From a phage: DNA of 52,935 nucleotides. Of this stretch, positions 42,210-50,570 are shown in pieces (the first letter of the stretch is position 1; the number at the start of each line of letters is the position of its first letter). The stretch lies in NCBI GenBank assembly GCA_024614105.1, contig GCA_024614105.1_4894.1; one strand, 5' to 3'. Under the pieces are notes generated by a model, which worked only from the letters and a program-made list of their open reading frames with translations, was not told the DNA's origin and searched no databases. The position numbers were made by a program, and so were the translations under genes.

Positions 42210-42542
42210 ATGATAAAGCCAAAACTGTTGCGGCATATTCGCAACGGTATTAAGCTACTCGCCGAAGGCAATGAATATGCCTGCAAGCAACGCGGTATTA
42301 CAAAAGTCGGCTTGTTTAATAAAGAGTTACCGACTCGCTACTTTACCAAATCACCATTAACACTCGTACCTGCAGCGGAGTATTATAAAGACCCCGAAGC
42401 AGCTCGGGCTAAAATCAAGGAAGGTCTTGACCGACTTGTAGAGGAAGGCTATTTGACAGTACGTCAACACACTGAATCATCTTATTACTACAAGCCAACT
42501 TCTAAGGTAACCAGCAATGACAATGACGAGTCAGCCGAGTGA
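42210..42542 (+). CDS. hypothetical protein (possible DNA-binding regulator)
   Basis: 110 aa; RBS GAGGAGAG; first gene after + promoter 42150-42179. Confidence 0.45.
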   Translation: MIKPKLLRHIRNGIKLLAEGNEYACKQRGITKVGLFNKELPTRYFTKSPLTLVPAAEYYKDPEAARAKIKEGLDRLVEEGYLTVRQHTESSYYYKPTSKVTSNDNDESAE

Positions 42543-45051
42543 TATTCTTGGTCTGAAATACTTTAAGCCAGAAGGGATCCCCCAAGTCTTCAAAGATATG
42601 AAGCGCTGGGCCATCTTTGAGCTGACGTACGAAGACGAGACCCTCGAAGTTCAATCCAAACCTAAGAAACCTGCAAGAGCGCCATCAGGCCGTTCCTTCA
42701 GCACAACAGTGCCTGAAGAGTGGATGACTTTCGACGACGCCCTGACACGTTGTATCCGCAATCGTGAAATGAAGATTAAAGCTGTACAAGGTAACATCAC
42801 CTTTGTGCCGGCTTTGATTGTTCCTCGCCAGTGGTACTTTGTTGACCTGGACAACCATGAAGATAATCCAGACATTGAAGCAACCCACAAAGCGATAATT
42901 GAGGGTACCCGTGGTGCTTATGCTGAGACGTCAATCTCTGGCAAGGGGCAACACATTGCAATCCCTTTACCCTGGACTGCAGCAACATCTAAAGAGAAAG
43001 ACGAACAGCTGGACATCAAAATCCAGAAGGCTGAGATGTTCCTGGTAATGACAGGCAATGTATTGAGTGAGTTCAATGCTAATCCTGTTTCAGCCCGTGA
43101 ATGGCATGCGGCTATTGAGAAGTTCTTTCTTGAAGCAAGCGCACCTGACATTGATGTTGAGTTTGAGCAAGACGAAGACCGTGGCGAAGAGTATGATAAA
43201 GAGCTGTACGAACAGTTAGCAGACAATACTCGCTGGGCTTTAGAGCACTACCTGAATGAGCATGCACCAGACGGTGTTGGTGTGAGTAATGACGGTTCCG
43301 AACGGTTAAGCCGCATACTCAAAGACCTGCTTCGTGTAACCCGTAACTACGAAGTTACACAACGCATCTTCATGGCCAGCAAAGCTGCAGCATACGAAGG
43401 TCGCAGACCAAGCCGACACAACTTGTCTGTTGATAAGTATCACCAGTGGTTCAGTCGTGTCGGTAAGACTGTGCTGAAAGAAATGCAACGTGACGGCTTA
43501 TTCGTCAAGACCAAGTTTGCTCTTGACATCAACAAAGAGTTAGCCAAGAATTCAGGTGTCTCCCTGGCTGAGAACGTTGAATTCAAAGTCAACGACGATA
43601 TTCTGCCTTCTGATGTATTTGTCAAGACGGCCCCGTCCGGGTTTAAACGGCTTATTGCTGAGATACAGGATAACATATCTCCGGCTAACAGGGTTAACGA
43701 CTATGCAATCGGCACAGCTCTTAACATCCTGAGCAACTGCGCTGGTCGCAAGTATGTTTGTCCAGTAGGCGGTCATGCTAACTTCCTGGTAACCAACATC
43801 ATTCTTGTGGGTGGTTCATCAATCGGTAAATCGCTGTATACCGAGTTGTTCCCACAAATCCAGGCAAGTTTACCTGACACATCGCCTATCAGTCTTAACC
43901 GTATCCCAAGGGAGCAGACTTTTGCAACCAGGACGTTTGCTGAACTGATGTCCAACCCGTCATACCATTCAGTCCAGTTGTTCTATCCTGAATTTGGTCT
44001 GGCTTTAGGTTCTGGCTTACGCATGAATCCTAACAACCCGGACAACTTTCAGAAAGCTCTGATGGACGCTTCAACCAAGCGTAAGTTAGGCGGTATACTG
44101 ACAGGTATCAAACGTGCTAATGCTGATAATGATGTCAAGACAGTAAGCGAACCATGCTACTCTATCCTGGGTGACTCCACTCAAGAGCTTATCCTTGATA
44201 ACACCCGGAAGCAAGACTTCTCAAGTGGCTTTTTGCCCCGCTTCCTGTTCATCCCGAACTATGAACGAGCGGAGTTTGCCAAACCTGAGAAGGTAGGACG
44301 TCGCCAGCAGATTCGCCGTACATCCTTTTCAAAGGAGCTGATTGAGAAGCTGGAAGCAATCGCTTATGTGAATGCTATCCCGCCTAACGGTAAACTAAGG
44401 CACGACCCGATTCCTGTTTACGACGAGTCAGACGATGATGACTTCCTGTACGAGTACCAGTGCAATATTAATGACATGCGCCAGTATTACAGGGATAACG
44501 AAGTAGCATCTGCCTTTGTGGGCCGAATGGGTGAGTATGTATTCAATATAGCAGCACTTATTGGATTACTCGACAACTGGGATACTCCTGTAATGACCAG
44601 GGACAACATCGAATGGGCTTACAAATATGTTCTTCGTTGTATAACAGCCTGGGTCAATAACACAAGCAGGATAGTCGCACCACCAACTACCAACGCCGAA
44701 GTAGTGGACGGCTTCCTAAAAGTCTACAGGGACATTTTGGCCCTTTACACCAAAAGAGGATGGTCTGGCATAGTCAAGCATTATCCCGAAGGTGTTGTAA
44801 GAAGCTTACGGGAAGACCATCTGAAAATGAACGGGCTGAGCATATATGCTATCCGGCAATCATTAAGTTGGTTCAAGTCCAATTATGGCTTTAACATAAC
44901 CGCAAATAACAAGGTTATTGACGGTATGTTGCAGGACATGATTGACCAGGACTATTTAGCAGTCCAAATATACAAACCCACAAGAGGGAAATCGGCAAAT
45001 ATCTACTGTTTAACCGAACGGGGATACGACGAAGCCAAGAAACTTAAGTAA
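42517..45051 (+). CDS. primase-helicase: archaeo-eukaryotic-type primase-polymerase domain fused to P-loop helicase domain
   Basis: 844 aa; AEP-like motifs YFVDLDNHED and ETSISGKGQHIAIP in N-terminal third; P-loop GGSSIGKS in central region. Confidence 0.65.
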   Translation: MTMTSQPSDILGLKYFKPEGIPQVFKDMKRWAIFELTYEDETLEVQSKPKKPARAPSGRSFSTTVPEEWMTFDDALTRCIRNREMKIKAVQGNITFVPALIVPRQWYFVDLDNHEDNPDIEATHKAIIEGTRGAYAETSISGKGQHIAIPLPWTAATSKEKDEQLDIKIQKAEMFLVMTGNVLSEFNANPVSAREWHAAIEKFFLEASAPDIDVEFEQDEDRGEEYDKELYEQLADNTRWALEHYLNEHAPDGVGVSNDGSERLSRILKDLLRVTRNYEVTQRIFMASKAAAYEGRRPSRHNLSVDKYHQWFSRVGKTVLKEMQRDGLFVKTKFALDINKELAKNSGVSLAENVEFKVNDDILPSDVFVKTAPSGFKRLIAEIQDNISPANRVNDYAIGTALNILSNCAGRKYVCPVGGHANFLVTNIILVGGSSIGKSLYTELFPQIQASLPDTSPISLNRIPREQTFATRTFAELMSNPSYHSVQLFYPEFGLALGSGLRMNPNNPDNFQKALMDASTKRKLGGILTGIKRANADNDVKTVSEPCYSILGDSTQELILDNTRKQDFSSGFLPRFLFIPNYERAEFAKPEKVGRRQQIRRTSFSKELIEKLEAIAYVNAIPPNGKLRHDPIPVYDESDDDDFLYEYQCNINDMRQYYRDNEVASAFVGRMGEYVFNIAALIGLLDNWDTPVMTRDNIEWAYKYVLRCITAWVNNTSRIVAPPTTNAEVVDGFLKVYRDILALYTKRGWSGIVKHYPEGVVRSLREDHLKMNGLSIYAIRQSLSWFKSNYGFNITANNKVIDGMLQDMIDQDYLAVQIYKPTRGKSANIYCLTERGYDEAKKLK

Positions 45052-45055
45052 AATC

Positions 45056-45095
45056 AAGGGCTTAGGTAGATTATATACTTAAGCCCTTATTTTAT
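45056..45095 (+). terminator. intrinsic terminator after primase-helicase gene
   Basis: 11-bp stem AAGGGCTTAGG / CTTAAGCCCTT followed by ATTTTATAT..CTTTTT. Confidence 0.55.
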
Positions 45096-45175
45096 ATACT
45101 CTTTTTGGCTTTTTAAATTAGCTATAATTAGGTATAGAGCAAAAATATGGTCCTAAGCTCTTAATTTATATACTC
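45080..45175. repeat. 22-bp imperfect direct repeat, two copies
   Basis: TAAGCCCTTATTTTATATACTC (45080-45101) and TAAGCTCTTAATTTATATACTC (45154-45175). Confidence 0.6.
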
Positions 45176-45212
45176 ATTTTGAATTTATAATATATGGCCT
45201 CGATAAATAAAA

Positions 45213-45259
45213 ATAAAGGGGGTAATAAAGGGGATACAAGTACCGGATAAAAGGGGGTA
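45213..45259. repeat. three iteron-like 12-bp direct repeats ATAAAGGGGGTA
   Basis: Copies at 45213-45224, 45225-45236 and 45247-45259 in an AT-rich intergenic region. Confidence 0.55.
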
Positions 45260-45262
45260 TAT

Positions 45263-45310
45263 ATTTATTTATTATTATTATTATTATTATATATTATTAA
45301 TTATATTAGA
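45263..45310. repeat. (ATT)n microsatellite within AT-rich tract
   Basis: tttatttattattattattattattatatattattaattatatta. Confidence 0.7.
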
Positions 45311-45349
45311 AGTAATAAAAACAGCTACTTAGAGGCGTCTATATGTATG

Positions 45350-45385
45350 ATCCGGTTTATCTCTTTATTAATATCAGAACCGGAT
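45350..45385. other. 8-bp inverted repeat enclosing a 20-nt AT-rich loop
   Basis: ATCCGGTT ... AACCGGAT. Confidence 0.4.
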
Positions 45386-45449
45386 GAAAAAAATATTTTT
45401 CGCCAGCGAAAAATTTAAAAAGTTGACAATTGAGTGTAAAATATAGACG

Positions 45450-45478
45450 TTTACACTTATTTTTATATACGCTACAAT
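45450..45478 (+). promoter_or_regulatory. sigma70-type promoter (TTTACA-N17-TACAAT)
   Basis: -35 45450-45455, -10 45473-45478; an additional TTGACA hexamer at 45423-45428. Confidence 0.5.
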
Positions 45479-45521
45479 GTATGTTAATATGATTAAACAC
45501 AAATATTTGGAGGTTGTATAA

Positions 45522-45722
45522 TTGGACAATGAAAACGTTAAGAAAGCAATACTGTTATTGGCTGATGAAGTAGATTTATTGAGGGCTTATGCTCAAGCCA
45601 ATGGTGAGGGTAGAGCGCGATTGATTGGCCGGTTGAGAACTACCTGGAAACGTCAGGCTGAGAACGGTGTGTCTTTTGAAAAATTAATTGCACTTCTTAT
45701 GGAGATAACAGATAATGGTTAA
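45522..45722 (+). CDS. hypothetical small protein
   Basis: 66 aa; TTG start with RBS GGAGG 9 nt upstream; downstream of promoter 45450-45478. Confidence 0.35.
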   Translation: MDNENVKKAILLLADEVDLLRAYAQANGEGRARLIGRLRTTWKRQAENGVSFEKLIALLMEITDNG

Positions 45723-46146
45723 TATTCGGCAGAAAGGACAGAACTTTGAGCGCAAAATGGCTAAGAAGTTCAATAGCTCGTTCGGATTAACTGTTGAGCG
45801 CAATCTTCAACAGTCTATTAATGGCGGGGACGACTTGCTTGGTGTGCCGTTTTTCAGCGTTGAACTGAAGAAGCACAATACCAAGTCTATCGGAACATGG
45901 TGGAGACAGTGTGCGGCATCGGCAAAGGCGCAGAATAAGATGCCGGTACTGATATACGAACTACCAAGAAAACAGCCTGTCGTGGTGATGAATAAGGCTG
46001 ATGTGATTGACTGTTTTCCAAGTGGCACGACTTTTAACGAGGCATCGACCCGACTCTTTGTGGGTCTAGTAGAATTAACATGGGAACAATTTTGCCGGGT
46101 CTACAACTATTACGTTGCGCCCGGCACTCAATATCACGTCAATTAA
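45715..46146 (+). CDS. PD-(D/E)xK nuclease, Holliday-junction-resolvase-like
   Basis: 143 aa; GQNFERKMAKKF ... GGDDLLGV ... SVELKKH resembles the G..FER / D / E.K arrangement of Hjc-type resolvases. Confidence 0.45.
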   Translation: MVNIRQKGQNFERKMAKKFNSSFGLTVERNLQQSINGGDDLLGVPFFSVELKKHNTKSIGTWWRQCAASAKAQNKMPVLIYELPRKQPVVVMNKADVIDCFPSGTTFNEASTRLFVGLVELTWEQFCRVYNYYVAPGTQYHVN

Positions 46147-46328
46147 TCTTGTTTCAGCTCGTCGCAAATGACACGCTGATTTTTGGCAGGGATAATACCA
46201 AGATTTAGCAGGGTGTATGGACTATCAGCGACACATTGTTCAACGGTAGTCCATTCAGGTTTGGATTCAACAATTTTGTAACTACAATCATGAGTAGCCA
46301 CACATGTTGCCAGGATTAAGCCAATCAC
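46143..46328 (-). CDS. hypothetical small protein with N-terminal hydrophobic segment
   Basis: 61 aa, GTG start overlapping upstream stop (GTGA), RBS GAAGGTGA; N-terminus IGLILATCVA. Confidence 0.35.
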   Translation of the reverse strand: MIGLILATCVATHDCSYKIVESKPEWTTVEQCVADSPYTLLNLGIIPAKNQRVICDELKQD

Positions 46329-46504
46329 AAGTAATCACCTTCAACCAGAAATTCAAACAGCTGGTTGTAAACGTTGCAACCTTTAGCGAAAGAGCTTTCA
46401 GCAGGTTTACCGTCGCGGACAATCATCATATACTCACCGCCATGGATGTCCACCCAGTATTGCATGCCACCTTTGACCGGGTTACGTTGTAAGAATTTAA
46501 ACAT
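46325..46504 (-). CDS. hypothetical small protein (not in ORF track)
   Basis: 59-aa ORF found by hand (MFKFLQRNPVKGGMQYWVDIHGG...), RBS GGAG, TAATG coupling with upstream gene. Confidence 0.3.
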   Translation of the reverse strand: MFKFLQRNPVKGGMQYWVDIHGGEYMMIVRDGKPAESSFAKGCNVYNQLFEFLVEGDYL

Positions 46505-46749
46505 TATTTGCTCCTTATTCCAAGTTTATTCAATAGCCACACTGTCATGTCAACCCAGGTTAACGGTACAGTTTTCGGGGGTTGATAATTCCAGCAGCTT
46601 GCAGTTCTTTGTATTTCTGCTTGGCGCCGCTCCGCTTCGCGTAGTACCGCATCGTCAGAAGTGCTGGCAGAAAAAAGATCGGTAACACCAGATAAATCGC
46701 GTTGATTAACACGTCGAGCAATGTCATATAAGTCATCCTTAGAAAACAT
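46504..46749 (-). CDS. hypothetical protein
   Basis: 81 aa. Confidence 0.4.
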   Translation of the reverse strand: MFSKDDLYDIARRVNQRDLSGVTDLFSASTSDDAVLREAERRQAEIQRTASCWNYQPPKTVPLTWVDMTVWLLNKLGIRSK

Positions 46750-46864
46750 AAGCCAATACCATAAGAATTACCAGAAAGATCCCAACCAGCTTCCTCATCG
46801 CCCGACCTTCAGCATATGCAGGATTCACAACAGAATACTCAACAACATGTTTACAGCGGACCAT
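46739..46864 (-). CDS. hypothetical small membrane peptide (not in ORF track)
   Basis: 41-aa ORF with strong RBS GGAGG 5 nt upstream and hydrophobic C-terminus (LVGIFLVILMVLAYVF). Confidence 0.3.
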   Translation of the reverse strand: MVRCKHVVEYSVVNPAYAEGRAMRKLVGIFLVILMVLAYVF

Positions 46865-46888
46865 AAGGCCTCCACTTGTGGGTTAATT

Positions 46889-46935
46889 CAATCATGAGGA
46901 CTTTCATCAAATCCTCATTGTTGAACCAATTACCA
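46889..46935. repeat. intergenic hairpin element, copy 1 (family with conserved flanks)
   Basis: caatc-ATGAGGACT-ttcatca-AATCCTCAT-tgttgaaccaattac. Confidence 0.5.
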
Positions 46936-46955
46936 GCGTCAGGACTTTGTTGATA

Positions 46956-47156
46956 TTACTCTATCATTACCTGAACTACTATTATACACTCTTTATTGAA
47001 GCGAGTAAACACTTTTCCACCATTAGTGCGTTTAGCCCCAGATTTTAGAGCTGACTGGCACCAGATATGCCACTCCTCAACTGTCAAGAATTTTTGTTCA
47101 GCTTTGGGTGGCAATCCATGGGCAAGGTCTACCGTAGTAAATTTGACTAATGGCAT
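46956..47156 (-). CDS. hypothetical small protein
   Basis: 66 aa from ATG 47156; TGATG coupling. Confidence 0.35.
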   Translation of the reverse strand: MPLVKFTTVDLAHGLPPKAEQKFLTVEEWHIWCQSALKSGAKRTNGGKVFTRFNKECIIVVQVMIE

Positions 47157-47545
47157 CACTTGACCTCAAATTTTGACTCGTCATATTCCGGATCAGTCAC
47201 GTCCCGGGTCGCACAATTTTTGATTGCCTCCCAGTAACGTTGGGCATCATCGCCATCGACATAAACTGTCCAGTGGCCGTAACCACCTTCAAATCTGTCC
47301 CAGGCTTGTTCCCAGACTTTGCCATCTTCCAGCTTGTACCAAGTTGGACGACTGTCAAACTCGCGGATTGGATGGTACCCCATCAAGGGATTCATCAGGT
47401 CAATAATGTCTTCCCGACTAATCTCCTGGTTCTCCCACAACACCGTCATGAATTGCTCAAACTTGAAGGCGTTTGGCAGAACTTTGATGACTTCACCATC
47501 ACGATATACGGTATAGGTGCCATCTTCGCATTTTGCACTGTACAT
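47156..47545 (-). CDS. hypothetical protein
   Basis: Start moved to ATG 47545 (MYSAKCEDG) with strong RBS AGGAGAGAG; upstream hairpin element in leader. Confidence 0.45.
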   Translation of the reverse strand: MYSAKCEDGTYTVYRDGEVIKVLPNAFKFEQFMTVLWENQEISREDIIDLMNPLMGYHPIREFDSRPTWYKLEDGKVWEQAWDRFEGGYGHWTVYVDGDDAQRYWEAIKNCATRDVTDPEYDESKFEVK

Positions 47546-47570
47546 GTTTCTCTCTCCTATTGATATAATT

Positions 47571-47615
47571 TCAATCATGAACTATCACAACTTTGGATAG
47601 TTCATTGTTGAAACT
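47571..47615. repeat. intergenic hairpin element, copy 3
   Basis: caatc-ATGAACTATC-acaactttg-GATAGTTCAT-tgttgaaactatac; perfect 10-bp stem. Confidence 0.5.
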
Positions 47616-47787
47616 ATACTAACTTTGTTACAATCTGAATTGTCAGCCGGAAATCTTCCATCAAGTTATCAAACTCTTTGGAACCACCAACAGCGTCAGA
47701 AATTTGGTCTTTGACTATCTGGGCATTTGATTCCAGTAATTCAATCAGGTGCGCCAATTCGTCTTCAGTCAATTTCAGATCTTTCAT
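47614..47787 (-). CDS. small acidic helical protein, member of a three-paralog family
   Basis: 57 aa (MKDLKLTEDELAHLIELLES...); ATGA coupling; paralogous to 48047-48205 and 48909-49082. Confidence 0.4.
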   Translation of the reverse strand: MKDLKLTEDELAHLIELLESNAQIVKDQISDAVGGSKEFDNLMEDFRLTIQIVTKLV

Positions 47788-48041
47788 AATGCATCCACCC
47801 AAGCCATAACTTTTGCCAGTTTTACAACGTCGTCATGGTCCCGCTCGCCATCAGAAAATTCGCTGGCGATGATACCCATAATTGACGCCAGATTCATATT
47901 GATGATGTAGGCGTGTTGGCGCACTTCATCAATTCCTGAATCTATCACCAGCTCCGCAAATTCTTGTGAACCTTCATCCCATTCAGCCCAATACTGTTCA
48001 GCATAAAAGTCCAGTTCTTTTTTCATCTCAATGTCAGTCAT
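47784..48041 (-). CDS. hypothetical small acidic protein
   Basis: 85 aa. Confidence 0.4.
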   Translation of the reverse strand: MTDIEMKKELDFYAEQYWAEWDEGSQEFAELVIDSGIDEVRQHAYIINMNLASIMGIIASEFSDGERDHDDVVKLAKVMAWVDAL

Positions 48042-48046
48042 TTTGA

Positions 48047-48205
48047 TTACTCCTCAGAACCTGAAAATTTGTCATCAATGGACTCAACAATATAATCAAG
48101 AGTTGAAGTGTGAGAACTATCAGAAAAAGTGCCCATCTTCTCCAGCTCAATCATCATATCCCGTAAAGCCATTGCCTGGTCTTTGGTCAGTTTAATTTTA
48201 AGCAT
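48047..48205 (-). CDS. small acidic helical protein, member of a three-paralog family
   Basis: 52 aa from ATG 48205 (MLKIKLTKDQAMALRDMM...) with RBS AGGAGAGAG; hairpin element upstream. Confidence 0.4.
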   Translation of the reverse strand: MLKIKLTKDQAMALRDMMIELEKMGTFSDSSHTSTLDYIVESIDDKFSGSEE

Positions 48206-48230
48206 GTCTCTCTCCTGTTGATTGTGAATA

Positions 48231-48270
48231 ATTTCAATTGATGGCACTACTTGAGTGCCATCTCAAAAAT
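48231..48270. repeat. intergenic hairpin element, copy 4
   Basis: caatt-GATGGCACT-acttg-AGTGCCATC-tcaaaaattac; perfect 9-bp stem. Confidence 0.5.
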
Positions 48271-48812
48271 TACTCTTCAGTTTCTTGGGTTTCAGGTTTT
48301 TGACCAGTCACAGACTTGCCCTCAGTCACTTTACCAGATTTTACATCATTCCGGTAGTATGACATATATGACTGGATAACTCTTTTGGCTTTGATGTCAT
48401 CCGCTTCCATCCCACAGGCTTTCATGGCATCAACTAGGGCCAGTTTGGAATCTTCCTTGTCCATCAGGTTATAGTCCTTAAATACCAGATAACAAGTATC
48501 TTTGGTTGATGGACCAGATGACTTCCGGGCCCCGCCATTGGAAGATTTTGATGCCACAACTTTGACCTCTTCCACTTCCAGTTGGTTCAGTTCATCAAAC
48601 AATGCCTTGACCAACACTTCTTTTGAGTCCTTGACACTTACAGTACTTTCATCATTAAGGGACTTAATCATCTTAATGATCTGGTTATTGGCAAAGTACT
48701 GAAGACTATCCATCTGCACTACAATAGTCCCAAGACTTTCAGTAGTCAGACCAGATTTTACAGACTCAACAGAAAAGGCGGAAGTCAGGTAAACATAGTT
48801 GATAGTTGTCAT
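48270..48812 (-). CDS. hypothetical protein
   Basis: About 180 aa from ATG 48812 (MTTINYVYL), RBS-like AGGA upstream; largest gene of the small-gene block. Confidence 0.45.
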   Translation of the reverse strand: MTTINYVYLTSAFSVESVKSGLTTESLGTIVVQMDSLQYFANNQIIKMIKSLNDESTVSVKDSKEVLVKALFDELNQLEVEEVKVVASKSSNGGARKSSGPSTKDTCYLVFKDYNLMDKEDSKLALVDAMKACGMEADDIKAKRVIQSYMSYYRNDVKSGKVTEGKSVTGQKPETQETEE

Positions 48813-48868
48813 TTGATGTATCCTCATTGATAGAATTTTTGATAGGTGTCAATCCTTGACAAGTAAAT

Positions 48869-48912
48869 CCAATCATGAGGACTTTTACCAAGTCCCCATT
48901 GTTGGAAATTAC
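48869..48912. repeat. intergenic hairpin element, copy 2
   Basis: caatc-ATGAGGACT-tttacca-AGTCCCCAT-tgttggaaattac; near-identical to copy 1. Confidence 0.5.
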
Positions 48913-49082
48913 TTCAACTTAACCAGAATTGATTGGAGTAACTTGACCCTCACTTCCTGGTCTTTGACATCCCTTCCACTCTCCCTGTCATATTCCAACA
49001 GGTCACTTTCCATAAATAAAGTAGTGTCCAATTGGTCAACCAATAATTCCAGTTCTTCTTGGGACAATTCTAAAACTTTCAT
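48909..49082 (-). CDS. small acidic helical protein, member of a three-paralog family
   Basis: 57 aa from ATG 49082 (MKVLELSQEELELLVDQL...) with RBS AGGAG. Confidence 0.4.
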   Translation of the reverse strand: MKVLELSQEELELLVDQLDTTLFMESDLLEYDRESGRDVKDQEVRVKLLQSILVKLK

Positions 49083-49086
49083 CTTA

Positions 49087-49233
49087 TTACTCCTGATATT
49101 TAACAACTTGGGATTGGATAAAGTCAACACAATCTTCCACATCCATTGATTCAAAGTCTGGAACTGGACCATTGTTTATATTGACACACCAAAGCCCTTC
49201 ATTGGTATCATACCAAAGTGTGTAGTTGTCCAT
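49087..49233 (-). CDS. hypothetical small protein
   Basis: 48 aa from ATG 49233 (MDNYTLWYD) with RBS AGAGGTGA; first gene of the small-gene block. Confidence 0.3.
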   Translation of the reverse strand: MDNYTLWYDTNEGLWCVNINNGPVPDFESMDVEDCVDFIQSQVVKYQE

Positions 49234-49260
49234 CTTAATAGTCACCTCTTGTACTAGTTT

Positions 49261-49306
49261 CCAGTTGTGACTACTGTTACCAATAGTCACTGGTTGAAAC
49301 TATTAC
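49261..49306. repeat. intergenic hairpin element, copy 5 (imperfect)
   Basis: CCAGTTGTGACT...AGTCACTGG followed by conserved flank ttgaaactattac. Confidence 0.35.
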
Positions 49307-49623
49307 TAGTGTTACTATCAACAAGAAACATGTTACCAGATTGTTAAAGAGCAAAAGGTACCATTAACATCTACCAGATGTACCTGTTGACTGGTTAAGT
49401 ACTACCTACCCAAATTAAACCATACCAATACCCTCCAGACCAGTTGACTGGTCACTCAGTCATCACATTCAATAAATATATAATAGTCCAATCCCTCTTG
49501 ATTGTACACCTTATATTTGTAAGTTTATGCAAGTTTTTAGAAATGATAATCACTTGCGATTGAGAGTGGTTCTCATATGCAATTGATATAGTTTCACATG
49601 TAATTACTCAACTCAAAATGGTC

Positions 49624-49680
49624 GGCAGGGGTTATAATCACATAGGGGTGCCACTTAAAGGAGCCGGCGAAATTATTTCT
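49624..49680. repeat. direct repeat unit A (about 50 bp) in noncoding control region
   Basis: GGCAGGGGTTATAATCACATAGGGGTGCCACTTAAAGGAGCCGGCGAAATT; shares GGGGTGCYAC and GGAGCCRGCRAAATT blocks with unit B. Confidence 0.5.
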
Positions 49681-49800
49681 AAAAATATAATTTCAATCTG
49701 AATTATAGACGCTTTGTACTATACCGGCCGAAGTAGTTCACACGGTAATTGTACCAATCATAATAGTTACCAGGGTAATCATTTCAATTGAAATAGGTGC

Positions 49801-49860
49801 GGCGGGGGGTAATTTCGCAGGGGTGCTACCTGCCAGGAGCCAGCAAAATTTTTTTATTTT
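49801..49860. repeat. direct repeat unit B (about 50 bp) in noncoding control region
   Basis: GGCGGGGGGTAATTTCGCAGGGGTGCTACCTGCCAGGAGCCAGCAAAATTTTTTTATTTT; a third partial AAAATTTTTTTATATTTTTC tract at 49947-49975. Confidence 0.5.
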
Positions 49861-50084
49861 TTCTCTATTTTCTCCTTATCAGGACCAATCATCATCAGAT
49901 TGATACAACAGGAGCTAACCTTTTGCCTAACACAATAATAAGTGAAGCCCCTCTAAAATTTTTTTATATTTTTCGGAAATTGTGTAGACACTCACTAAAA
50001 AGTGGTGTACTTTCTCTCCTCCACGCGCTATCATTAATGCGAATAATCAAACGGCCTCACGGTCTCCTACTTGTGGGTAACATT

Positions 50085-50570
50085 ATGAAAATTGTTCAAT
50101 TAGAGCCATATCCGCCTCAATTGGCTATCGTTTGTAGCGAAAAAGAGCACGAAGAGCTCCAAAAACTGATGGATTTGCCTGATTTTGGCAACTGGAATGA
50201 CCGCGAAACGCGTACTGCATCTACCTTTACGTTCTCTCGCGTTAACTATCCGTACCTGTTAATCGTCGTCGAGCTGTACCACCCGGACGACCTGAAGTAC
50301 AACACCATTTCCCACGAAGGCATTCACGTAATGTCATCGCTGATGAACTATGTTGGCCTTAAATACGACCCAGAAAACGATGAATGGTACGCATATCAGC
50401 ATGATTTCATCGTAAATGCCATTTGTAAGGCCCATGACGAGTATACAGAGCGCCAAAAAGCGCCAAAAACTAAGCAAAAAATCGAAACAGGCAATCATCC
50501 TGTGATACAGCCACAAGACGTTATGAACTCGCTTTTGACTGACACTACTGGGGACTTTTTAGGTGATTAA
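50085..50570 (+). CDS. hypothetical protein with HExxH motif (possible small zinc metalloprotein)
   Basis: 161 aa from ATG 50085 (MKIVQLEPY); HEGIH followed by Glu about 20 residues later; upstream part of the longer ORF lacks RBS. Confidence 0.45.
   Translation: MKIVQLEPYPPQLAIVCSEKEHEELQKLMDLPDFGNWNDRETRTASTFTFSRVNYPYLLIVVELYHPDDLKYNTISHEGIHVMSSLMNYVGLKYDPENDEWYAYQHDFIVNAICKAHDEYTERQKAPKTKQKIETGNHPVIQPQDVMNSLLTDTTGDFLGD

Follow-up and report, generated by a model that had tools for sequence, protein, structure and literature searches.

A conserved module 3' of the primase-helicase gene of a Rosemountvirus-type phage is a candidate replication origin beside a predicted terminal-repeat boundary

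In this study, we analyzed the 470-nt gap at 45052-45521 of a phage DNA of 52,935 nt (contig GCA_024614105.1_4894.1; "the window" means this whole stretch), which has a primase-helicase gene on its left and, on its right, the 66-aa open reading frame ORF66 and a RusA-like nuclease gene (45522-46146, + strand). The gap is made up of two parts: a terminator with a conserved non-coding module (45052-45404), and the start of a direct terminal repeat (DTR; 45405-45521). From the comparisons reported below, we lean modestly towards reading 45052-45404 as a replication-origin module that adjoins the DTR junction at 45404|45405. Origin function appears well supported by comparison, because the layout of the module recurs 3' of the gene at 21-43% protein identity and the protein has the architecture of an initiator, although it is unproven. 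A preliminary description made from the letters alone had already proposed an origin here; the gene-linked module and the initiator architecture speak for that proposal, but it had overlooked the DTR boundary, and terminase recognition is a further, or an alternative, possible role of the repeats. Over 42517-46200, the identity is 92-97% with Rosemountvirus phages of Salmonella and Escherichia (8-19, nenneke, yarpen, birk) and ~70-75% with Loughboroughvirus phages (S144, ZCSE2, SE4). Judged by this similarity, the window is the genome of a Rosemountvirus-type myophage, and its 52.9 kb fit a complete genome carrying a single copy of the terminal repeat.

Sixteen relatives from two genera were aligned, to which fHy-Eco03, KE25 and Erwinia phage SOI901 were added later; IMG/VR supplied only four close loci. 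The entire architecture of the module was kept throughout the aligned relatives. Within Rosemountvirus, pairwise identity was 0.93 in the A+T tract, 0.97 in a box at 45311-45338, 0.96 in the inverted-repeat block and 0.86 in the G-boxes, as against 0.79 at the third codon positions of the primase gene and 0.49-0.63 in the spacers 45107-45153 and 45181-45212, which occur as three unrelated versions. The box exceeded the primase third codon positions in each comparison (0.97 / 0.84 / 0.80 vs 0.79 / 0.72 / 0.53). Since identity exceeds that of the third codon positions of the adjoining gene, the alignments indicate that the core at 45213-45404 is under purifying selection as non-coding DNA, and no conserved open reading frame was found within it among the aligned relatives. 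The (ATT)n part of the core varies in length, being ~15 nt longer in brunost. A 14-codon micro-ORF (45343-45387, MYDPVYLFINIRTG) with AGAGG 8 nt upstream lies within the conserved block; it was rejected as a gene and is probably none, because its ATG is not kept in Loughboroughvirus.

With the terminator in between, the module starts ~160 nt beyond the stop codon of the gene (45051). Its first elements are three G-rich boxes of the form AAAGGGGRTA, candidate iterons on the + strand (45213-45259), with start-to-start spacings of 12 and 23 nt and an ACCGGAT between boxes 2 and 3. They match ATAAAGGGGGTA at 12/12, 11/12 and 10/12 positions, and the 10-mer core AAAGGGGRTA is found exactly three times in 52.9 kb, all at 45215-45259, against an expectation of 0.10. 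None of 100 shuffles equalled this number, so that the three 12-bp iterons of the preliminary description are present and non-random. A pure A+T tract (45258-45310), which includes an imperfect (ATT)n, follows as the candidate DNA-unwinding element. Its first 51 bp (45258-45308) are 100% A+T and hold the least stable 50-mer in the whole window (z = 6.7), and the region was also top-ranked for low duplex stability at 100, 200 and 400 nt (z = 5.4-6.7 over all sizes). Tandem Repeats Finder (TRF) recorded 13 copies of period 3 at 45269-45308; the (ATT)n tract described earlier at 45263-45310 is therefore present beyond chance, as an imperfect repeat with 85% matches. Directly after the tract lies the conserved box (45311-45338, + strand; core AAACAGCTACTTAG at 45319-45332), a candidate priming or recognition site.

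The A+T tract is flanked by an inverted repeat, because the TAATAAAGGGGATACAAGTACCGGAT unit on its left (45223-45248, + strand), the left arm of a composite repeat found by local alignment, recurs inverted at 45350-45370. Aligned with indels to the reverse complement of 45350-45370, this arm scored 23 against 13.5 +/- 2.3 for shuffled sequences, of which 3 in 1000 reached the same score. The repeats on the right-hand side (45350-45389) consist of the inverted composite unit (45350-45370) and a direct half-unit, ATATCAGAACCGGATGAAA (45371-45389), which forms a second repeat family with ATACAAGTACCGGATAAAA at 45234-45252. The 8-bp inverted repeat ATCCGGTT/AACCGGAT noted earlier (45350-45357 and 45378-45385) was confirmed and belongs to the larger composite repeat; what had escaped notice were this composite repeat, the box 45311-45338 and the palindrome ATTTTTCGC-CA-GCGAAAAAT further right. 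No stem-loop or cruciform like that of pRN1 was detected across the A+T tract: the DNA fold of 45195-45345 is -6.7 kcal/mol, and 180 of 200 shuffles folded as well or better. The z-score of this fold (+1.10) rules out an origin of the pRN1 stem-loop type. A search of 44800-45800 against Rfam found no RNA family, its sole match (rli60, 27 bits vs a gathering score of 60) being due to chance.

The recurrence of this layout in distant relatives connects it with the gene. We found ~585 homologues of the primase-helicase and compared the 3' flanks in selected loci. A non-coding gap of at least 300 nt lies directly 3' of the gene in SOI901 (43% primase identity), in the Lokivirus Halfdan (21%) and in the loci L032 (38%), L033 (27%), L034 (25%) and L035 (26%), and in each of them the least stable 50-mer of the 4-8.5-kb locus falls 100-400 nt after the stop codon. 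Counted over the more distant loci, the least stable 50-mer was found at this distance in 7 of 11. Clear repeats of their own beside the A+T tract are present in all of these named loci but not in SOI901: AAAGGGGGTGTC, ATAGGGGT and ATAGGGGGCT in L032; ACACACAGAGAGA, twice, in L033; AAGGGGGTA (GGGGGT, direct) and an inverted TAGGGGGTT beyond the tract in L034; four direct copies of the TAGGGTAA type and one inverted copy beyond the tract in L035; and TATAAGG in Halfdan, with five direct copies and one inverted. In 19 loci, the pattern AAACANNWACTTAG is present as a single + strand copy that immediately follows the A+T tract; one of these loci is L033, whose version of the conserved box reads AAAAACAACTACTTAG. 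The neighbours in L033 are different, with holin and endolysin genes upstream and other genes downstream; because these flanking genes differ, the module is tied to the primase-helicase gene rather than to its surroundings at large.

The primase-helicase itself (42517-45051, + strand, 844 aa), the presumed initiator, comprises an AEP primase-polymerase, a helix bundle, an MCM-like AAA+ helicase and a C-terminal winged helix, and by profile and structure model its architecture is that of origin-binding, self-loading initiator-helicases. The profile of 32 homologues carries the AEP signature (DxD 110/112, H146), the Walker A lysine K438 and an arginine finger; the NrS-1 helix-bundle domain was recognized in 19 of the 32 members and DUF3987 in 22. 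The N-terminal 300 residues match PriRep5 of the Staphylococcus aureus pathogenicity island SaPI5 (7OLA; E = 1e-59, profile positions 8-300) and the NrS-1 primase-polymerase. The AEP domain alone gave such a match: at the sequence level, none to a characterized Rep or PriRep was found for the helicase and the C-terminal domain. When the C-terminal domain was modelled separately, its predicted local distance difference test score (pLDDT) was 80.5, and the top structural matches were solely winged-helix regulators. The recognition motifs of the NrS-1 primase (TTTGGTTA, GTG) are peculiar to NrS-1 and were not used.

A possible course of events at the module may be outlined as follows. The primase-helicase would bind the repeats through its C-terminal winged helix, then melt the adjoining A+T tract and load itself as an MCM-like hexameric helicase. 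Its AEP primase-polymerase domain would prime, possibly from the conserved box at 45311-45338, and the phage DNA polymerase would take over after priming. Terminase would cut in the palindrome at 45404|45405, giving the left virion end.

This end was placed by homology. The genome of fHy-Eco03 is linear with 3,699-bp direct terminal repeats, according to PhageTerm and restriction digest (PMC8145870). Its primase is 79% identical to that of the window, and its left end, GTTATTGCC|GGCGCAAAAAG, aligns at 45404|45405, the centre of the palindrome (45396-45415). In the 57,020-bp record of the Rosemountvirus Sz, the two ends are exact copies of a 4,263-bp repeat; the boundary on the left, TTTACGCT|GGCGAAAAAAA, is homologous to 45404|45405, and that on the right, CCAGGAGCC|AGCGGAATTTTTTT, corresponds to 49841|49842. 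The 10-mer GCC[AG]GC[AG]AAA has just three copies in the window (45402, 49663 and 49839), always on the + strand, and the copy at 49839 is the right boundary of Sz and fHy-Eco03. Because both boundaries match the ends of these two phages and the cut motif recurs, 45405-49841 (4,437 bp) is predicted to be the DTR, which would carry ORF66, the RusA-like nuclease gene and a minus-strand cluster of small genes. By this homology, the left virion end is likely at 45404|45405, where terminase is predicted to cut, and the right boundary at 49841|49842. Since the left end maps to 45404|45405, the last 117 nt of the gap, including a promoter, are part of the predicted repeat. An A/G co-variation of both cut sites, suggested by the window and fHy-Eco03, is not general, since in Birk the left site reads GCC|GGCG and the right one GCC|AGCA.

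About ten GenBank records (BP63, swi3, IntR, SD350, SB2, SE-SHZ-R, PEA2-3, AEV23, BEC1-17, UPF_BP2) start or end at differing points in 45100-45420. A genome end within the (ATT)n tract, where BP63, swi3, IntR and SD350 open, was rejected, because the defined ends of fHy-Eco03 and Sz lie ~100 nt further right, in the palindrome, and the breaks differ among records and fit the behaviour of assemblers at low-complexity DNA. Most openings at 45100-45420 are probably assembly breaks of this kind, and the orientation and length of most deposited genomes are probably not physical, because the second copy of the terminal repeat is absent from them. Restriction mapping of S144 had placed one physical end in the gap that holds the homologous right boundary, and short repeats were inferred; such short repeats at the right boundary alone disagree with the 3.7-4.3-kb repeats of fHy-Eco03 and Sz. 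The SspI band of ~5.7 kb in S144 suits the right boundary, and a long repeat predicts a left fragment of 10.9 kb, not a second band of 5-7 kb.

The nearness of the genome end brings in a different explanation, in which the repeats together with the A+T tract form a pac- or cosB-like site for terminase recognition: a packaging protein would sit on the G-boxes, the tract would bend the DNA, terminase would cut at 45404|45405, and no origin would be present. We consider this rather unlikely. It agrees with the mapped end lying 50-190 nt from the repeats, and three repeats with a bendable spacer ~150 nt from a cut resemble lambda cosB. The G-box core GGGGGTAAT is found only twice in the window, at 45218 in the module and at 49805, 37 nt upstream of the right DTR cut (4 of 100 shuffles gave at least two copies), and the second copy is conserved in 8/8 aligned phages. 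The contigs of L034 and L035 end 300-660 nt past the primase gene, as a repeat boundary would produce. However, in lineages with rearranged neighbours the module follows the primase-helicase gene and not terminase, and the gene of the large terminase subunit TerL lies at 283-1731, distant from the module. The two DTR boundaries share only the 10-mer at the cut and one 9-mer, and no extended similarity besides these was detected between them. Direct and inverted repeats around an A+T tract, 3' of a gene for an AEP/AAA+/winged-helix protein, are the documented layout of a SaPI origin.

Several observations weigh against an origin at 45052-45404. The module is only 50-190 nt from the terminase cut, and a packaging protein explains the conserved GGGGGTAAT copy at 49805 as well as an initiator does. 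All G-boxes lie to the left of the A+T tract and all are direct, and boxes 2 and 3 have decayed to AAAGAAAT and AAGAGAAT in ZCSE2, KE25 and fHy-Eco03. A module 3' of the gene was not found in Loki, PaMx42, L036 and L037; Loki has instead a repeat-rich, A+T-rich region of 720 nt upstream of the operon. The lineage-specific repeats of the distant loci illustrate the layout and do not test it, because the patterns were read off after the fact. No DnaA-box cluster was found in the 470-nt gap (two one-mismatch matches vs 0.84 expected, both in the promoter part), and an origin dependent on host DnaA is ruled out by its absence. The GC skew is uninterpretable as an origin indicator, because it tracks gene orientation. 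The literature found on Rosemountvirus and Loughboroughvirus phages makes no mention of an origin or of replication data.

If the module is an origin, its firing may be coupled to the duplication of the terminal repeat, a proposal that we regard as quite doubtful. Replication by the primase-helicase from 45.2-45.35 kb would run rightward over a terminase nick at 45404|45405, the 4.4-kb repeat would be copied by strand displacement, and a single-copy concatemer junction would become two complete genome ends. The primase-helicase would then have a second landing site in the G-box at 49805. If true, the coupling would give a concrete mechanism for the making of long direct terminal repeats, which has been poorly understood so far.

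The module is bordered by transcription signals on both sides. The intrinsic terminator of the primase operon (45056-45106, + strand), identified by a terminator scan, consists of a hairpin at 45056-45088 and a T-run; its RNA fold is -20.2 kcal/mol (z = -5.16), and 5 of the 13 pairs of its stem show compensatory changes in nine relatives. This is a strong terminator, and the primase-helicase terminator named in the preliminary description is thus real. The 22-bp direct repeat reported with it (45080-45101 and 45154-45175, 20/22 identical) also exists beyond chance but is mostly a terminator arm, copy 1 being the 3' arm and the T-run. The second copy, a box of the form TAAG..TTTATATACTC (45154-45180, + strand), is conserved, with pairwise identities of 0.76 / 0.73 / 0.69 within and between genera vs 0.33-0.49 in the adjoining spacer. 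It was rejected as a second terminator because 45154-45175 showed no fold (z = +0.26). Exact copies of TTATATACT are found at 45071, 45092 and 45166, with a single further one elsewhere in the window. The whole window has just two exact matches to the IHF core consensus; one of them, AATCAAGGGCTTA (45052-45064), shares bases with the 5' arm of the terminator and is conserved in relatives. On the other side, a promoter scan identified a sigma-70-type promoter, TTTACA-17-TACAAT (45450-45478, + strand), in agreement with the earlier reading; it matches the consensus at 10/12 positions, and its -35 (GTAGACGTTTACAC) and -10 (TACAAT) elements are kept as far as SOI901. It is predicted to be the first promoter inside the left genome end and to drive ORF66 and the RusA-like gene.

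These signals could suggest that the gap is a transcriptional boundary only, with a terminator, a curved A+T insulator with UP-element-like tracts, operators of a regulator (ACCGGAT and the palindrome) and the early promoter of the left end. The strength of the terminator and the conservation of the promoter agree with this, as do the palindrome and the Fis-like and IHF-like matches that adjoin the promoter, and similar A/T-rich tracts with a GTAGAC box also precede other promoters of the phage (e.g., 49950-50010). Nevertheless, we find this explanation improbable: it accounts neither for a 51-bp tract of 100% A+T with flanking repeats ~140-240 nt upstream of the promoter nor for the persistence of the module 3' of the primase gene in lineages with other downstream genes and promoters, and the box 45311-45338 is more conserved within Rosemountvirus than the promoter-proximal DNA. 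That the gap is non-functional low-complexity DNA or a recombination junction, with repeats left by slippage at a mosaic boundary of swapped cassettes, is very improbable, for although the (ATT)n length varies, the spacers come in three unrelated versions, the following gene is a variable cassette and ten GenBank assemblies break in the region, the core 45213-45404 surpasses synonymous sites in conservation and is recognizable at 27-43% protein identity, and the cassette swaps begin at the DTR boundary, outside the module.

The similarity between relatives breaks at ~45393-45421, the repeat boundary, and the swaps of ORF66, Ant, an HNH endonuclease or nothing begin there. ORF66 (45522-45722, 66 aa), the first gene within the terminal repeat, is such a swappable cassette. 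The 66-aa version is carried by the window phage, 8-19, nenneke and fHy-Eco03; the slot holds an Ant-like anti-repressor in birk, KE24 and the SPLA phages and is empty in yarpen, SE13 and JEP7, and a homing endonuclease is annotated in the corresponding interval of LPSEYT. At the other end of the locus, the ORF list gives a small ORF of 110 aa (42210-42542, + strand), the first of the two genes of the operon, which runs into the start of the primase-helicase gene. It matches phrog_28429, a PHROG with no assigned function, and no Pfam match was found for it. A similarly placed small ORF is annotated in SOI901, PaMx42, Halfdan and Loki, that of Loki being labelled "putative DNA-binding protein." The second least stable duplex in the genome (42081-42181, z = 4.1-4.5) falls where the promoters of the minus-strand replication cluster and of the operon of the small ORF and the primase diverge; it is an alternative location for an unwinding element, and the repeat-rich, A+T-rich region of Loki sits at that upstream position.

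Around the right boundary of the predicted repeat, ~850 nt of non-coding DNA (49230-50085) separate the minus-strand small-gene cluster from the plus-strand cluster that follows. Within this region is a pair of paralogous modules, R1 (49621-49680) and R2 (49796-49862), which share the pattern GGTnGGC-GGGG(G)T-...-AGGGGTGC-...-GAGCC|RGCRAAAWT; R2 is the predicted right terminal-repeat boundary, and R1 is a copy 176 nt upstream. A non-coding block at 49518-49600 (TGCAAGTTTATGCAAGT..TTTAGAAATGATAATCAC..GATTGAGAGTGGTTCTC..ATTGATATAGT), which holds short direct repeats and a hairpin-like inverted repeat, is near-invariant even in SOI901 (43% primase identity). The virion DNA of S144 and fHy-Eco03 resists most restriction enzymes and is cut only by ScaI or by enzymes with A/T-only sites (fHy-Eco03: PMC8145870). 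This resistance suggests DNA modification, which, if present, would matter for in vitro work on the origin and the cut sites.

In the literature found on Rosemountvirus and Loughboroughvirus, phages widely proposed for biocontrol of Salmonella and E. coli, no origin is described, and the present analysis offers a precise candidate with predicted binding sites, an unwinding element and a conserved box. The gene product annotated as "DNA primase" gains the architecture of an initiator, with an AEP primase, an MCM-like helicase and a winged helix, and the gene with its candidate origin appears to be a cassette common to several unrelated phage lineages. Because ~10 GenBank records open inside the region, the likely ends 45404|45405 and 49841|49842 and their shared cut motif are useful for genome orientation, and they could also be instructive for studying how long terminal repeats are made.

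Compared with known packaging sites, the module has a certain likeness to lambda cosB and SPP1 pac, where the terminase cut has several short repeats and a bendable spacer no more than ~200 bp away. In the window, 45404|45405 is separated by 145-190 nt from the G-boxes and by 20-160 nt from the ACCGGAT units, and one G-box copy is near the other cut. Unlike cosB and pac, which are neighbours of the small-terminase gene or part of it, the module goes with the primase-helicase gene, far from TerL. At the concatemer junction of T7, the terminal repeat, packaging signals and a secondary origin at the right end stand side by side. The arrangement of the window is similar, with a replication-start element (a candidate here) and cutting signals next to a direct terminal repeat. 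In contrast, the repeat of T7 is 160 bp long and its origins need promoters for T7 RNA polymerase, whereas the repeat here is ~4.4 kb and the coupling is hypothetical. No phage RNA polymerase is encoded here (PMC7432712).

Among initiators that combine primase and helicase, orf904 of the Sulfolobus plasmid pRN1 has its origin within 166 bp downstream, past the terminator of the gene, and a small regulator gene precedes it (PMC4234260). The operon described here resembles orf56/orf904, as a small ORF and a gene for a protein with AEP primase, helicase and winged helix are followed by a terminator. Nevertheless, the origin of pRN1 is a ~100-nt stem-loop without iterons and its helicase belongs to SF3, in contrast to the repeats and the pure A+T tract found here with no stable stem-loop. 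The alpha protein of P4, a multifunctional primase-helicase, binds repeated sites at the origin with its C-terminal winged helix (summarised in PMC4234260). The satellite phage P4 (alpha, ori/crr) thus shares with the window a primase-helicase with C-terminal winged helix, but its primase is of the Toprim type and not AEP. The lambda origin likewise has iterons beside an A+T-rich unwinding region. It differs in lying inside the O gene, with O recruiting host DnaB, whereas here helicase and primase are within the initiator itself.

The closest comparison is with SaPI and the phage-inducible chromosomal islands (PICI). SaPI Rep proteins bind iterons through a C-terminal winged helix, and their origin lies immediately downstream of rep and has an A+T-rich centre (PMC9371898). 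Similarly, the candidate in the window follows directly on the presumed initiator gene and has an A+T-rich centre with short repeats around it, and its protein resembles SaPI Rep and PriRep in having an AAA+ helicase with a C-terminal winged helix; the SaPI5 initiator is fused to a homologous N-terminal AEP primase. The differences are that the G-boxes are one-sided and in one orientation, symmetry being given by the composite repeat with ACCGGAT; that an extra invariant box follows the A+T tract and the module abuts a terminal-repeat boundary; and that the element belongs to a virulent myophage of 53 kb that has its own DNA polymerase. An origin of the SaPI type would have at least two iterons per side in opposed orientation; in the window, the composite unit recurs inverted on the far side of the A+T tract, and L034, L035 and Halfdan have one or more inverted copies there. 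Considering these likenesses and differences together, the element may work like a SaPI-type origin with a PriRep-like initiator, and its membership in this class is partly established by its position, its A+T centre and the architecture of the initiator.

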